Positions 9,890 through 60,205 of a DNA stretch of 64,000 bases are shown here, piece by piece (position 1 is the stretch's first letter; each line of letters starts with the position of its first letter). The stretch lies in assembly GCA_019695305.1 (NCBI GenBank), contig JAIBAG010000016.1, positions 1,161-65,160 on the forward strand, read 5' to 3'. The translations under genes and the position numbers were made by a program. The notes beneath the pieces were generated by a model. The model saw only the letters and a list, made by a program, of their open reading frames with translations. It searched no databases and was not told the DNA's origin. The stretch is from a bacterium (lineage in GTDB: Bacteria; UBA10199; JAIBAG01).

Positions 9890-9947
9890 TTGCAAGTTAC
9901 TTTCAATAAGCCTTGACATTATACGCCCTCACTTTTACAAGTGAGGC

Positions 9948-13410: not shown

Positions 13411-13417
13411 GTGGGTG

Positions 13418-13582
13418 GTTCTTTTCAGGATCTTTAAAATTTTTTTCTAAAAAACCTGAAGGCCTCCATAAAATAACGGCCTCACCATTGCAGGTTGAAA
13501 GAGTCTTTTGGGTGGAAGGGTGAGGCCTTTAGAGTGGGCCACATGTTTTTTAGAAAAAAATTTTAAAGATCCTGAAAAGAAC
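13418..13582. repeat. Structured intergenic repeat family A, copy 1 (165 nt)
   Basis: Perfect 38-bp inverted arms, 13418-13455 and 13545-13582. Conserved core (..ACGGCCTCAC..GGGTGGAAGGGTGAGGCC..GTGGGCCACATG). Lies inside the cys operon between cysW and cysA. Confidence 0.85.
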
Positions 13583-13652
13583 ATCTGTTTTATGTGGGTG
13601 ATAAAGCGCTATTTTTTTGAGATATGTTGAAGAGTTTTATTGAGGAGTAATT

Positions 13653-19971: not shown

Positions 19972-20094
19972 TTATCCTGAGAGGAAACAGTTCCTCTGAA
20001 ATTAATCCCCTGCGCTAATGCTTCGGGGATAAGACCCTGATAAAGCCGCCCTGAACTTTGTTCAGGCCGACTAACAGGCTCTAAAGGAGTTATT

Positions 20095-20631
20095 ATGGCA
20101 AATACTCAACCGATTGAAACCAACTATGTAGATATGACGGGTGCTACAACTACGGCCCAGCAACGTGCGGTTTCGGGAACCAATTTTTACGATACCATGA
20201 ACCAGCTGATGTACTACGCCGGTCCTACAGCCGCTCAAACGGCTGCTTATACGGGTCATGATGTAGTGTCGGCTGCCATCACGGCTTCGGCCGGTGGCTA
20301 CGGCGGTGGTTATGCCGGTTACCCCGGGATGTCTACCGGCGGTATGGGTTATACGGGTTATCCTTCGGCTTCGGTAGGCTTTAACTCGGGCGGTGTGGGT
20401 GCCAGTGTTTCGTACGGTGGGTCATCTAGTGCTGTTTCACGCAGTACGGGCACTTCTGATACCATGAGCTTAGTGAGTGATCAATTATACCAAGGCCAAG
20501 TACAAAACATGGAGATGTTGGTACTTCAAAACCAGGTAGCCGATGTAAACCGTACCTGGCAAATTGCCTCTACCGTAAGCGCCAATAGCGAACAAACCAA
20601 AATGGCGATGGTAAGAAATATGAGAGGTTAA
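20095..20631 (+). CDS. Needle-filament (SctF)-like protein with long Gly/Tyr/Ser-rich N-terminal extension
   Basis: 178 aa. The C-terminal ~45 aa (LVLQNQVADVNRTWQIASTVSANSEQTKMAMVRNMRG) follows the SctF pattern (..LQ..(I/V)N+W..I.ST+....+..I+QNFR). AAGGAG RBS. Strong terminator after it. It sits at the fliE/sctF position before a TPR chaperone and sctJ. Confidence 0.5.
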   Translation: MANTQPIETNYVDMTGATTTAQQRAVSGTNFYDTMNQLMYYAGPTAAQTAAYTGHDVVSAAITASAGGYGGGYAGYPGMSTGGMGYTGYPSASVGFNSGGVGASVSYGGSSSAVSRSTGTSDTMSLVSDQLYQGQVQNMEMLVLQNQVADVNRTWQIASTVSANSEQTKMAMVRNMRG

Positions 20632-20660: not shown

Positions 20661-20696
20661 ATCGCGGTCCCGCCCCAGGCGGGACCGCGATTTTTG
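20661..20696 (+). terminator. Rho-independent terminator
   Basis: ATCGCGGTCCCGCC-CCA-GGCGGGACCGCGAT forms a 14-bp stem, followed by TTTTTG. Confidence 0.85.
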
Positions 20697-27361: not shown

Positions 27362-27456
27362 AAGAGTAACCCCCTCCCGCTCCCCCTTAGTTTAAGGGGG
27401 AGAGAAAAGAAAGCCCCCTCCCTTAGGCTAAGGGAGGGTTGGGGTGGGTTACTCTT
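27362..27456. repeat. Structured intergenic repeat family B, copy 1 (double CCCTTA-NNN-TAAGGG hairpin inside an outer stem)
   Basis: Outer stem AAGAGTAACCC (27362-27372) pairs with GGGTTACTCTT (27446-27456). Hairpins at 27380-27402 and 27416-27438. It fills the sctN-sctO junction. A near-identical architecture occurs at 59091-59196. Confidence 0.8.
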
Positions 27457-37480: not shown

Positions 37481-38137
37481 GTGTGGGGTAATTTGGGTAT
37501 GGAAAAGGAATTGGAAAATATTGCGTCCACCAAAAAGAAGGACAATAAAAAAGGCGAAAATCGTCTTATTTCGCCCGATCCCGTTCGTAAAAAGTTTATT
37601 ACCGAATTACTGCACGCTTTTGCTGCCCGTAAAATTAGTTTTGCCGAATTAACAAGGTTGCATCCCAAAAAAATAAAACAGATTGCCGAAATTGGTTTTG
37701 TTAAACTGCGCCATGGCCGTTACAAAGACGCCCGCCGAATTTTTGAAGCTCTAACTTTTTTAGACCACAAAAATTCGTTTCACCATTTGGCTTTGGCCGG
37801 TGCATATCAAAAACTGGAATTGTTTGTGGATGCCATTTATCAATACACCGAAGCGTTGCGGATAGAGCCCGATAATATCAACGCTATGGTTAATCGTGGT
37901 GAATTGTATTTGCGCCGCAAAAGTTATCGCAAGGCTGCCGAAGATTTTAGAAACGCTATTTTAAAAGATGAAACCGGCAAAGACCGTTTTGCCAACCGCG
38001 CTAGGTCGCTGGTGATTGCTATAAAACGTTCGCTTGCTCAAGATAAAGAAGAAGCGTTAAAACCCAAGAAAATCCCTACCTCACCGGCTAACAAAGCCAC
38101 TCTCTCGCCTTTTAAGTTTAATATGAAGAAGAAGTGA
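37481..38137 (+). CDS. Class II T3SS chaperone (LcrH/SycD-like TPR), second copy
   Basis: 218 aa from GTG at 37481, or 212 aa from ATG at 37499. IFEALTFLDHKNSFHHLALAGAYQ. TPRs. Basic C-terminal tail. Confidence 0.75.
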   Translation: MWGNLGMEKELENIASTKKKDNKKGENRLISPDPVRKKFITELLHAFAARKISFAELTRLHPKKIKQIAEIGFVKLRHGRYKDARRIFEALTFLDHKNSFHHLALAGAYQKLELFVDAIYQYTEALRIEPDNINAMVNRGELYLRRKSYRKAAEDFRNAILKDETGKDRFANRARSLVIAIKRSLAQDKEEALKPKKIPTSPANKATLSPFKFNMKKK

Positions 38138-38217
38138 ATGGTGGATAGTGGATAGTTAATAGTAAAGAGGGAAATACTATTTCCATCCACCATAAACCAT
38201 CCACTATCCACTTCTTC
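38127..38217. terminator. Long imperfect palindrome between convergent genes (bidirectional terminator candidate)
   Basis: GTGGATAGTGGAT (38141-38153) pairs with ATCCACTATCCAC (38199-38211), plus ATGGTGGA/TCCACCAT and GAAGAAG/CTTCTTC. Confidence 0.5.
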
Positions 38218-39639
38218 TTACTCATCATCATCTTCTCCCACCGACGAATCGATAATTCCGTATTTAATGAGAAGATTACGCAGATGCTTGCGGTCAATCT
38301 GGGCTTCGCGGCTGGCTTTAGAAACATTGTTTTTATTGCGTTTCAAAAGATCTTCTAAATAATCTTTTTCAAACACTTCTACAATCTTTTGTTTGGCTTC
38401 TTTAAACGGCAGTGAGTTATCAACCAAGTCTTTTGCGGATGATTTTACCTCACCAGCACCTTGAATTTCGCTAAAAATAAACTGCAGGGTGTTGCCATCA
38501 ATAACACCGTTATTAGCAAACGATACAGCACGTTCCAAAATATTGTTCAGTTCGCGCACGTTGCCGGGCCAAGGATAGCGTTGTAAAATTTTAAGCGCAT
38601 CATCTTCTACTTTGCTGGCATAAAATGACCCATCCGGCTTTTTGTTGTAGCGCGCATTAGAGAGTACACGTTCTACAATAAGTGGAATATCATCAGTGCG
38701 TTCACGTAATGGAGGGAGTTGGATCTTAACCACCGAAAAGCGGTAGTACAGATCTTCACGAAAAGTTCCTTTTTTTACTTCTTCTTTTAAATCACGATTG
38801 GTTGCGCACAACACACGGACATCCAGTTGGATGGACTGTGTAGAGCCTACGCGTTTAATTTCGCGTTGTTCTAGCGCCCGTAAAAGTTTGGGTTGTAAAT
38901 CGAGCGTTAACTCGCCAATTTCGTCCAAAAATATGGTGCCGCCATTAGCCGATTCAAAAGCACCTTTTCTATCTTTTAAAGCACCAGTGAACGATCCTTT
39001 CATGTGTCCAAAGAGTTCCGATTCAATTAAATTGGGAGCTACGGCCGAGCAATCAAACACAATAAAAGGTTTGTCTTTTCTTACGGAGTTTTCATGAATG
39101 GCACGAGCTACCAGTTCTTTTCCGGTACCAGTTTCACCCTGAATGATGACGGTAGCCATGGTGGGCGAGATACGTTCTAAAATACCAAAAATCTGGCGCA
39201 TTTTTAAACTTTTACCCACCATAGAGCCAAACTCATTATTTTTGGACGGCTCCATTTGTACTTTTTCGTTAAATGCCTGGTATTCAATTTTAGTGCCGCC
39301 AATAGTAATCACATCGCCCGGCGACAAAAAGGCTTCTTTTACCTTCATGCCATTAATAAAAGTACCGTTGGTGGATCCTAAATCGCGCAACAGATACGAA
39401 TCGGATGTGGCCTCAATTTTCATGTGGTTGCGCGACACGGTTTTATCGTTAATCACAATATCGTTATCGCTTTTTTTACCGATGGTGAGTTCTTTCTTTT
39501 TACCTAGTTCGTGTTTTACTTTGGGACTTGGGCCATCAATAACAACCAACATGCATTTACGTAAAGAAACAACATCTTTAAAATCTTCTGCCGATAAAAT
39601 TTCGGTTTTATTGCCAATTTCGTTTTCTGTATCCGACAT
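38218..39639 (-). CDS. Sigma-54-dependent transcriptional activator (bEBP) with N-terminal FHA domain
   Basis: About 473 aa from the ATG at 39639. FHA (LTIGKKSDNDIVINDKTVSRNHMKIE....YLLRDLGSTNGTFING). AAA+ Walker A GETGTGKE. Sigma-54 contact loop ESELFGHMKGSFTGA. GGTIFLDEIGEL. C-terminal Fis-type HTH. Confidence 0.9.
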   Translation of the reverse strand: MSDTENEIGNKTEILSAEDFKDVVSLRKCMLVVIDGPSPKVKHELGKKKELTIGKKSDNDIVINDKTVSRNHMKIEATSDSYLLRDLGSTNGTFINGMKVKEAFLSPGDVITIGGTKIEYQAFNEKVQMEPSKNNEFGSMVGKSLKMRQIFGILERISPTMATVIIQGETGTGKELVARAIHENSVRKDKPFIVFDCSAVAPNLIESELFGHMKGSFTGALKDRKGAFESANGGTIFLDEIGELTLDLQPKLLRALEQREIKRVGSTQSIQLDVRVLCATNRDLKEEVKKGTFREDLYYRFSVVKIQLPPLRERTDDIPLIVERVLSNARYNKKPDGSFYASKVEDDALKILQRYPWPGNVRELNNILERAVSFANNGVIDGNTLQFIFSEIQGAGEVKSSAKDLVDNSLPFKEAKQKIVEVFEKDYLEDLLKRNKNNVSKASREAQIDRKHLRNLLIKYGIIDSSVGEDDDE

Positions 39640-41746: not shown

Positions 41747-41851
41747 ATCTATTGTAGGGGCTTACGTAGCCCCCTCCATCGGCAATCCCACAGAGACAAA
41801 TTTGTGAGCCGGATGGAGTCTCCCCGTCAACGCCCCGTTGGGGCTGGTTAT

Positions 41852-49457: not shown

Positions 49458-49621
49458 TAAACAAACCAGTTTGCCTTTTTATTTTTTTCTAAAACATGGA
49501 GTCCATCTATAAGATGACGCCCTCACAGTTCATATAAAAATTGTACTGGGTGGAAGGGTGAGGGCTTTTAGGGTTGGCCGCACGTTTTAGAAAAAAATAA
49601 AAAGGCAAACTGGTTTGTTTA
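49458..49621. repeat. Structured intergenic repeat family A, copy 2 (164 nt)
   Basis: Perfect 38-bp inverted arms, 49458-49495 and 49584-49621. Conserved core ATAAGATGACGCCCTCAC...GGGTGGAAGGGTGAGGGC..GGCCGCACG. Lies between the convergent pckA and aminotransferase genes. Confidence 0.85.
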
Positions 49622-56049: not shown

Positions 56050-56115
56050 CGTCATCGCGGCCGAAGAGCCGCGATCGAATCTGAATCGAGATCGCGGGTC
56101 AAGCCCGCGATGACG
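56050..56115. terminator. GC-rich tandem hairpins between convergent genes (bidirectional terminator candidate)
   Basis: ATCGCGG-N8-CCGCGAT (56054-56075) and ATCGCGGG-N5-CCCGCGAT (56091-56111). An alternative outer stem pairs CGTCATCGCGG with CCGCGATGACG. Confidence 0.55.
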
Positions 56116-56117
56116 GA

Positions 56118-60047: not shown

Positions 60048-60205
60048 GGCTCCGGTGTTAAAATTTTATTTTATTCTAAAACAAAATGTCCTCTATAAGA
60101 TGACGTCCTCACAATTTCTGGGAAGATAAGCTTATGGGTGATAGGGTGAGGACTTAAAAGTGGGCCGCATGTTTTAGAATAAAATAAAATTTTAACACCG
60201 GAGCC
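60048..60205. repeat. Structured intergenic repeat family A, copy 3 (158 nt)
   Basis: Perfect 35-bp inverted arms, 60048-60082 and 60171-60205. Conserved core ATAAGATGACGTCCTCAC...GGGTGATAGGGTGAGGAC..GTGGGCCGCATG. Confidence 0.85.

Follow-up and report, generated by a model that had tools for sequence, protein, structure and literature searches.

The stretch of DNA analysed here, a window of 64 kb, carries three copies of a non-coding repeat that we designate family A, all of them on the + strand. Copy 1 separates cysW (TIGR02140, 405 bits) from the sulfate ABC ATPase gene cysA, beginning 7 nt past the cysW stop codon and ending 70 nt short of the cysA ATG. Copy 2, flanked by the convergent genes pckA and hisC, begins 10 nt past the stop codon of the former. 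Copy 3 follows an Opp/Nik-type ABC permease gene, starting 54 nt beyond its stop codon, and stops 41 nt short of the nagZ ATG. All three copies are oriented like the gene upstream of them and follow its stop codon at a distance of 7-54 nt. A preliminary description made from the letters alone had placed the copies at 13418-13582, 49458-49621 and 60048-60205 and one of them in the cysW-cysA junction; the positions, the sequences and this placement of copy 1 between cysW (TIGR02140) and cysA were all confirmed. The window also holds a Y1/RAYT-like gene at 7567-8541, which matches Pfam PF01797 at 40.5 bits, above the cut-off, and NCBIfam NF047646 (REP-associated tyrosine transposase) at 67 bits against a cut-off of 80 (E = 1.6e-18). 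This gene is bracketed by 22-nt inverted repeats of its own, GGGACGTTCTTGACTAACCGGA, which are unrelated to family A. An assembly artefact was considered as the source of the repeats and rejected. The three units are contig-internal and flanked by intact conserved genes, and an element bounded by the same arms occupies the pckA site in both L022 and L028, which are independent assemblies. Each unit consists of a core enclosed by two inverted arms, as follows.

13418..13582, + strand, 165 nt: copy 1, whole palindromic unit (covariance model, 125.1 bits)
13418..13455, 38 nt: copy 1, left arm, composed of the outer locus-specific part GTTCTTTTCAGGATC, a T-rich tract and the variant terminus CTAAAAAAC
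13456..13544, + strand, 89 nt: copy 1, core, with inner helix 13478-13486/13519-13527 (GGCCTCACC/GGTGAGGCC)
13545..13582: copy 1, right arm, reverse-complementary to the left arm throughout, its run being 2 nt longer as well (GTTTTTTAG)
49458..49621, + strand, 164 nt: copy 2, whole unit (covariance model, 117.5 bits)
49458..49495, 38 nt: copy 2, left arm, composed of TAAACAAACCAGTTTGCC, TTTTTATTTTTTT and CTAAAAC
49496..49583, + strand, 88 nt: copy 2, core, with inner helix 49519-49526/49558-49565 (GCCCTCAC/GTGAGGGC)
49584..49621: copy 2, right arm, exact reverse complement of the left arm
60048..60205, + strand, 158 nt: copy 3, whole unit (covariance model, 125.0 bits)
60048..60083, 36 nt: copy 3, left arm, composed of GGCTCCGGTG, TTAAAATTTTATTTTATT and CTAAAACA
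60084..60169, + strand, 86 nt: copy 3, core, with inner helix 60105-60112/60146-60153 (GTCCTCAC/GTGAGGAC)
60170..60205: copy 3, right arm, exact reverse complement of the left arm

An exact inverted-repeat search returned perfect arms of 38, 38 and 36 bp around spacers of 89, 88 and 86 nt in copies 1, 2 and 3, respectively. The earlier claim that the arms are perfectly self-complementary within each copy was borne out, with 112 of 112 arm pairs being Watson-Crick and neither a G:T pair nor a mismatch among them. The G+C content of the arms is 21-28%. When the window was scanned for perfect arms of at least 14 bp with a spacer of up to 250 nt, the only other inverted repeat was a 14-bp G+C-rich, terminator-like hairpin at 20661-20691. 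Chance can therefore be excluded as the origin of the arms, since arms longer than 14 bp occur in none of the other perfect inverted repeats of the window. All long perfect palindromes of the window are occupied by a family A core, with no empty one among them. In each arm, the outermost 10-18 nt are unrelated to those of the other copies, and the following 13-18 nt are T-rich in the left arm and A-rich in the right. These tracts are partly alike (copies 1 and 3 share TTAAAATTTT; copies 2 and 3 share TTTTATTTT), so that the preliminary description, which had the outer 22-25 nt unrelated between copies, holds for the outermost 10-18 nt and fails for the next 13-18 nt. The arms end inwardly in the termini CTAAAAC/GTTTTAG, which are common to the copies; in copy 1 the terminus carries a 2-nt indel in its A run that is mirrored in both arms (CTAAAAAAC/GTTTTTTAG). 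The likeness of GTTTTAG...CTAAAAC to the ends of CRISPR repeats was judged a coincidence, as no repeat array is present. At the outer boundaries, copies 2 and 3 have no direct repeat in their flanks. Copy 1 has the 7-nt direct repeat GTGGGTG, which abuts the left end and stands 11 nt off the right end.

The cores share conserved blocks that occur nowhere else in the window, in agreement with what had been described. Block ATAARATRACGNCCTCAC has three matches against 0.06 expected in the window, block GGGTGRWAGGGTGAGG is exact in all three copies, and these two, like the block at the right end of the core, are confined to family A. Pairwise identity of the cores is approximately 70%; variation falls mostly in the apical loop and the core blocks are far more conserved. 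The core is itself an imperfect palindrome, with an inner helix that reads GGCCTCAC/GTGAGGCC, GCCCTCAC/GTGAGGGC and GTCCTCAC/GTGAGGAC in copies 1, 2 and 3. All pairs of this helix are strictly Watson-Crick, and the compensatory change reported at one position is real, the pair being G-C, C-G and T-A in the three copies. A short open reading frame in the core (MTPSQFI/MTSSQFLGR in copies 2 and 3) was rejected as a coding sequence because copy 1 lacks a start codon there; it is also disfavoured in that the variable helix position would be a first codon base.

Folding of the whole copy 1 unit as RNA gave -82.2 kcal/mol (z = -11.5). The + strand folds of copies 1-3 reach -32.3, -24.7 and -21.5 kcal/mol, against -25.1, -22.2 and -15.2 kcal/mol for the - strand, and the + strand has mid-stem G:U pairs that would be A:C on the - strand. 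The + strand is thus the better folder in all three copies. In the folding check suggested in the preliminary description, the cores by themselves showed no clear advantage over shuffled sequence (z = -0.7 to -2.1). Scans of the copies for promoters and intrinsic terminators found nothing consistent or shared.

Family A is new, in that it matches none of the Rfam, IS or MITE families searched, and on this point the preliminary description is supported. A search of the whole window against Rfam at the gathering threshold returned no match. In E-value mode, copy 2 drew only sub-threshold generic plant miRNA hairpins (MIR9563, 62 bits against a gathering cut-off of 90). A covariance-model search had been suggested at the outset; a model built on the three copies (R1) recovered only these three in the window at 117-125 bits, the next best score being 17 bits. 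In approximately 119 kb of sequence from relatives the same model found no copy, and its best score there, 25.7 bits, fell on an empty hairpin in contig L030. The exact pattern CCTCAC N15-40 GGGTGRWAGGGTGAGG had 11 matches in GTDB species genomes, all of them unrelated G+C-rich palindromes in other phyla, and 10 in JGI metagenomes, all of them chance or coding sequence; every match was inspected by eye. A pattern scan of IMG/VR gave 0 matches, and blastn against plasmid and phage collections gave none. The proteins of the window are closest to those of 'Deltaproteobacteria bacterium' MAGs, and 9 of the 10 that were looked up are the sole members of their 90%-identity clusters. No relative of CysW exceeds 77% identity and no relative of NagZ exceeds 58%. 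Because CysW and NagZ have no close relatives and nine of ten proteins stand alone in their clusters, only the pckA locus can be compared with related genomes.

Two contigs allow that comparison, L022 (a Logan contig of 4.6 kb) and L028 (an ENA contig of 1.1 kb), both of which encode a PckA in the same 90%-identity cluster as the PckA of the window. The L022 and window proteins share 94% amino acid identity, the genes 85% nucleotide identity, and the fourfold-degenerate sites 61% identity. Downstream of pckA, L022 has a canonical terminator followed by an inverted-repeat element with arms TAAACATTCGGGTTCTGGTTTTTATTTT/AAAATAAAAGCAAAGCCCCGAATGTTTA. This element and copy 2 have the same outer boundaries (GA|TAAACA ... 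TGTTTA|AAGA), their flanks can be aligned on both sides, and the block TTTTTATTTTT is common to the arms of both. The outer and T-rich arm parts of copy 2 are orthologous to the arms of L022 and L028; L028 has the same left arm with 2 substitutions and ends inside the element. The L022 arms are 82% complementary, compared with 100% in the window, and enclose a spacer of 91 nt. Homology of this spacer to the family A core was rejected. Global alignment was no better than with shuffled sequence (z < 0.6), nhmmer with its filters off reported nothing at E <= 100, and the R1 covariance model found no match. Rfam in E-value mode gave only sub-threshold generic hairpin models for the L022 element. 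The L022 core can instead be read as a pair of inverted, G+C-rich hairpins that bear GTAG tags, one being GTAG-GGGCAGGGC-TT-GCCCTGCCC and the other GTAG-GGGTGCTGC-TT-GCTGCACCC in inverse orientation, and it folds into one hairpin. In its inverted GTAG-tagged hairpins it resembles a REP doublet (REPIN) as far as the cited accounts describe one (PMC3733652, PMC3337134). The same arms with the same boundaries therefore surround unrelated cores, which indicates that copy-specific arms stay with the pckA locus. By this comparison the outer arms at pckA evidently belong to the locus and pre-date both the species split and the family A core, and it is the core that differs. The possibility that the outer arms are pre-existing host palindromes, raised in the preliminary description as a challenge to its own reading, is thus upheld in part: the arms are present at pckA in L022 and L028, but they enclose a different core there rather than an empty site, and the evidence concerns one locus of the three. 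Long, perfect, locus-specific hairpins that lack a core do occur in this clade: at positions 5533-5587 of L030, from a more distant relative, perfect 24-bp arms close a loop of 7 nt, and a stop codon precedes the hairpin by 1 nt.

The arms also differ between the two species in an orderly manner. Four pair changes separate the window arms from the L022 arms, all mirrored (AACCAG/CTGGTT versus TTCGGG/CCCGAA), and three of the four are swaps that have no wobble route (A-T to T-A twice, and C-G to G-C). The change in the inner helix (G-C, C-G and T-A) belongs to the same class. Divergence among the cores, at approximately 30%, is not far from the 39% by which the two species differ at fourfold sites, taken as neutral. 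Core identity of approximately 70% beside a neutral identity of 61% implies that the copies are not all very young, and with arms free of mismatches something must keep the arms matched. Template switching is known to homogenise and extend the arms of inverted repeats and to create multi-base changes that look compensatory (PMC8794818, PMC13100816, PMC5941160, PMC7202029). The strict Watson-Crick symmetry, the mirrored indel and the wobble-free swaps favour such templating at the DNA level, and the perfect arms are most likely kept by arm-to-arm copying of DNA and not by selection on RNA. We infer the action of this templating in family A from the pattern of changes. The preliminary description had taken the paired changes as a sign of selection for RNA or single-stranded DNA structure rather than of copying. 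Its observation that differences between copies preserve pairing is correct, as they are always mirrored. Its conclusion does not follow from the data, given the absence of G:T among 112 pairs, the mirrored 2-nt indel and the swaps without a wobble route. Template-switch (quasipalindrome) mutation accounts for the Watson-Crick arms and for the mirrored changes and indels without wobble. It is a mutational process and not an element family, and most documented cases involve short stems and short spacers, whereas in family A it would presumably act across a spacer of approximately 88 nt at three dispersed copies.

The interpretation that we prefer, at a confidence just short of even, is that family A consists of MITE/REPIN-like hairpin repeats that sit at the tips of locus-resident palindromes located after stop codons and whose arms are re-copied at the DNA level. 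The element proper would be the core of some 86-89 nt, bounded by CTAAAAC...GTTTTAG. The copy-specific outer arms would not be carried by it; they would stay at the site while the occupant of the tip differs by lineage. The core may have arrived at the hairpin tips as single-stranded DNA, and insertions at the tip would survive in that they leave the basal stem intact. Once in place, one arm would be repeatedly rewritten from the other, through template switching during replication or through gene conversion within the palindrome, and a strongly folding core could hold the arms in register and so aid the re-copying. On this mechanism, stepwise compensatory selection on RNA would be unnecessary for perfect arms.

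The strongest competitor holds that the element makes its own arms. A hairpin with T-rich terminal inverted repeats of approximately 20 bp would insert, and its stem would then extend into the unique flanks as flanking sequence is copied in inverted form, either by fold-back (snap-back) synthesis at insertion or by later template-switch expansion, giving an 'inverted target duplication'. Several observations suit this model. Each long perfect palindrome in the window has a family A core with none left empty, the inner tracts are partly alike across copies in the manner of terminal inverted repeats, the perfection of the arms tracks the family A core (100%, against 82% in L022), and template switching is documented to expand the arms of inverted repeats (PMC13100816). 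At pckA, however, the arms of L022 and L028 keep the same boundaries around a core without detectable similarity to family A, the boundary of the palindrome has not moved since the species split, and an empty long perfect hairpin exists in a relative (L030). We rank locus-resident palindromes above element-made arms on the strength of this direct orthologous comparison, which covers one locus only, and regard the latter as unlikely.

Another explanation would make the whole units of 158-165 bp mobile, arms included, the three copies being samples of subfamilies with different long terminal inverted repeats. The GTGGGTG repeat that brackets copy 1 could be the target duplication of a unit with its arms, cores that are some 30% diverged would fit old subfamilies, and the L028 contig ends in the element, as assemblies do at repeats. 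Against mobile whole units stand the lack of any flanking direct repeat at copies 2 and 3, the synteny of the copy 2 arms in two genomes while the core differs, and the mutual dissimilarity of the outer arm parts. The exact-pattern scans of GTDB genomes and JGI metagenomes also revealed no other copy, and we consider this explanation improbable.

A similarly low probability is assigned to family A being a structured RNA, either a small RNA gene or a cis-acting element of 3'-untranslated or intercistronic regions, in which selection on the RNA fold has driven true compensatory evolution. Such a role agrees with the better folding of the + strand in three of three copies, the mid-stem G:U pairs that exist on this strand only, the orientation of every copy with its upstream gene 7-54 nt after the stop codon, and core blocks that are far more conserved than the apical loop. 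The arms count against it, with stems of 36-38 bp that are perfect and have 0 G:U in 112 pairs, which selection on RNA would not require, an indel mirrored in both arms, and pair swaps without a wobble route. Core-only folds at z = -0.7 to -2.1, the absence of an Rfam match and of any consistent promoter or terminator, and the lack of statistical power for covariation in three sequences likewise weigh against a structured RNA. Taken together, the + strand fold bias, the + strand G:U pairs and the shared orientation give a weak indication that the unit matters in the upstream transcript. It would then be co-transcribed with the upstream gene, and any activity would be that of a hairpin at the 3' end or between cistrons. 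Double-strand-specific RNases typically attack long perfect duplexes. A duplex of 36-38 bp in an mRNA would either block exonucleases or be cut by such an RNase, and in copy 1 it may uncouple cysA from cysW.

The least credible alternative, which we think very improbable, is that the units are invertons in which a recombinase flips the core at a site formed by the inner motif TTCTAAAAC/GTTTTAGAA, inversion keeping the arms identical; perfect inverted repeats that are locus-specific and have an inner motif and a core in common do resemble families of invertible promoters, and a gene starts 41-70 nt downstream of copies 1 and 3, but the three cores all point the same way, each being an imperfect palindrome of only 86-89 bp, the copies have no sigma-70-like promoter in common, copy 2, placed between convergent genes, has nothing to drive, and no recombinase gene is adjacent.

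If locus-resident palindromes receive the element at their tips, the question of what mobilises it follows. HUH/Y1 transposases of the IS200/RAYT type need a single-stranded DNA substrate, which the tip of a hairpin offers. Y1-type transposition into single-stranded hairpin tips is accordingly the route that we would propose, and the want of a direct target duplication shared by the copies is compatible with HUH/Y1 or with other routes that do not use a DDE enzyme. Beside the family A copies, no DDE transposase was seen. The repeats of the RAYT-like gene in the window are unrelated to family A, and thus no transposase can be tied to the family.

REP and REPIN repeats, which are mobilised by RAYTs, are among the closest known systems; they include the 'TIR' repeats associated with RAYT-like genes (Di Nocera et al. 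2013, PMC3733652). As described in the cited accounts (PMC3733652; Bertels & Rainey, PMC3337134), they share with family A the character of short, non-coding, intergenic repeats that form long imperfect hairpins. REP-type repeats are mostly found downstream of coding regions (PMC3733652), and, so far as that description extends, both groups lie mostly just downstream of coding regions and neither has a target-site duplication. The presence of a RAYT-like gene in the window and of a GTAG-tagged, REP-doublet-like element at the orthologous site in L022 adds to the likeness. The differences are nonetheless considerable. The GTAG/CTAC signature of GTAG-tagged REP/REPIN repeats is present in none of the three family A copies, while the L022 core has this form. 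In family A, a G+C-rich helix of 8-9 bp closes a loop of approximately 30 nt and not one of 4-5 nt. REPINs have conserved ends and a variable middle, whereas the middle is conserved in family A and the outermost stem is locus-specific and perfect. A REPtron consists of a RAYT gene flanked by repeats of the same family, and the RAYT-like gene of the window is flanked by the unrelated GGGACGTTCTTGACTAACCGGA. CGTC-tagged REPs are described as having a CGTC tag, a stem of 8-9 bp, a loop of 4-5 nt and a short CCA-like tail (PMC3733652). Set against that description, family A has GACG ahead of its 8-bp helix in only two of the copies (2 and 3), copy 1 having AACG there, and its loop measures approximately 30 nt.

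Other families of small repeats match family A in some respects only. Correia elements (NEMIS) of Neisseria and enterobacterial ERIC sequences, which are MITEs co-transcribed in the form of long hairpins, have terminal inverted repeats that are conserved between copies and a short direct target duplication, which is TA for Correia. They resemble family A in being elements of approximately 100-170 bp with terminal inverted repeats, in their intergenic or intercistronic position and in forming one hairpin in mRNAs, but differ in that the outer arms of family A are copy-specific and no consistent direct repeat accompanies them. Insertion into palindromes is known for complete insertion sequences, IS1397 and ISKpn1 entering enterobacterial palindromic units and IS110-family elements entering REPs. 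Such insertions also leave a mobile element centred in a palindrome with mutually inverted flanks. Their target is a conserved repeat, however, and the insert is a full IS with its transposase gene, whereas family A joins locus-unique palindromes to a non-coding core of approximately 90 nt. In integron attC sites, outer R''/R' boxes (RYYYAAC ... GTTRRRY) enclose an imperfect palindrome that varies. Identity with attC was rejected, as TTCTAAAAC/GTTTTAGAA misfit the box consensus and family A is conserved inside and variable outside, the reverse of attC. Compared with a classical MITE, the derivative of an IS with a DDE transposase (bacterial MITEs are reviewed in PMC10969869, PMC2229807 and PMC3184786), family A shares its inner termini and T-rich tracts between copies but not the outer 10-18 bp. 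The target-site duplication of a classical MITE is also absent, copies 2 and 3 having none and the repeat at copy 1 not abutting the right end. The earlier contention that standard models of terminal inverted repeats with direct target-site duplications fail to explain the arms is sustained. The distinctive features of family A are its position at the tip of a locus-specific palindrome, its perfect arms, and the occupation of the orthologous palindrome in a sister species by an unrelated repeat.

Family A is a new repeat family from a poorly sampled, 'Deltaproteobacteria'-like lineage and is recognised by no public model. If the preferred reading is true, what looks like textbook covariation would arise from templating at the DNA level, which would call for caution in covariation-based discovery of RNAs. 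The tips of hairpins that follow stop codons would then be shared landing sites for unrelated hairpin repeats, and such sites may be favoured as being both single-stranded and harmless, which would help to explain the accumulation of REP-like and MITE-like repeats. A broader and more speculative proposal, which we consider unlikely as matters stand, is that small hairpin cassettes (family A in the window, a REP doublet in the sister species) specifically colonise the single-stranded tips of long resident palindromes, where they can replace one another, and drive a continual re-copying that keeps the 36-38-bp stems perfect, or else that the cassette produces an inverted duplication of its target by fold-back synthesis. 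Either the colonisation of tips by cassettes or the fold-back inverted duplication, if true, would constitute a mode of insertion or maintenance undescribed for bacterial mobile DNA.

The site downstream of pckA that carries copy 2 of family A (49458-49621) has an orthologous counterpart in two related genomes, L022 (4403-4549) and L028 (1037-1079). At both of these sites the arms are the same as those of copy 2 and the core is different; in the relatives it resembles two GTAG-tagged REP hairpins in inverted orientation. In L028 the element is cut off by the end of the contig. A single GTAG-tagged REP-like hairpin (GTAGGGGCTTACGTAGCCCC) was also detected in the window at 41754-41777, within the intergenic region 41747-41851. 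Therefore, GTAG-type repeats are present in the source genome too.

Other composite intergenic palindromes were found in the window, several of which sit between convergent genes.

Other composite intergenic palindromes in the window
27362-27456, outer stem (about 11 bp) enclosing a pair of inner hairpins
38126-38219, composite palindrome
56050-56117, outer stem (about 11 bp) enclosing a pair of inner hairpins
63797-63850, imperfect palindrome with 26-bp arms and a 2-nt spacer, without an inserted core

A unique perfect hairpin without an inserted repeat (24-bp arms, 7-nt loop) occurs at 5533-5587 of L030, from a more distant relative whose PckA is about 71% identical, and follows a PIN-domain gene, 1 nt past its stop codon. 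Downstream of a HAD-hydrolase gene in the window, the small hairpin ACGCCCTCAC-TTTTACAA-GTGAGGC (9925-9947) shares its stem sequence with the inner helix of copy 2 of family A. The covariance model built on the three family A copies gave no hit to this hairpin, which may be either a relic or coincidental. At copy 1, the 7-nt direct repeat GTGGGTG adjoins the left arm (13411-13417) and recurs 11 nt past the right arm (13594-13600). Nothing comparable flanks copies 2 and 3, and the repeat may represent a target duplication or chance.

The window also encodes a RAYT-like transposase and, beside it, a candidate toxin-antitoxin pair.

RAYT-like gene and neighboring pair
6721-7207, minus strand, ParE-family toxin (PF05016) and antitoxin candidate (RHH_5)
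7516-8563, RAYT-like Y1 (IS200-type) transposase gene including its repeats (ORF 7567-8541, plus strand)

The RAYT-like protein (324 aa) has an HTH-like C-terminal tail, and its gene lies between inverted repeats of 22 nt, GGGACGTT[C/T]TTGACTAACCGGA, at 7516-7537 (plus) and 8542-8563 (minus), a layout resembling a 'REPtron/TIRtron'. A third copy of the repeat lies at 7272-7293 and a degenerate copy near 6684; two copies flank the toxin-antitoxin candidates. The 87-aa toxin matches PF05016 at 48 bits, while the overlapping gene encodes a 78-aa ribbon-helix-helix antitoxin candidate whose RHH_5 score (23 bits) is below the cut-off. The 2183-aa ORF at 128-6679 matched no Pfam domain at E <= 0.001.

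The longest pckA ORF in the window starts at GTG 47801. The start conserved with the relatives is ATG 47849, which gives the 532-aa form found in the protein collection. A structured leader precedes pckA in L022 and another gene in the window.

Structured leader of about 97 nt
window, about 20001-20098, immediately 5' of ORF 20095-20631
L022, 2643-2739, immediately 5' of pckA

The two copies are 83% identical and follow the pattern ATCCCCTGCGCTAATGCTTCGGGGATAAGA...CCGCCCTGAAC.TTGTTC.GG...GCTCTAA.GGAG, the 3' end being the ribosome-binding site; the pckA of the window has no such leader. The leader has no Rfam match at gathering level. It may represent a 5'-UTR module that is recurrent or mobile.
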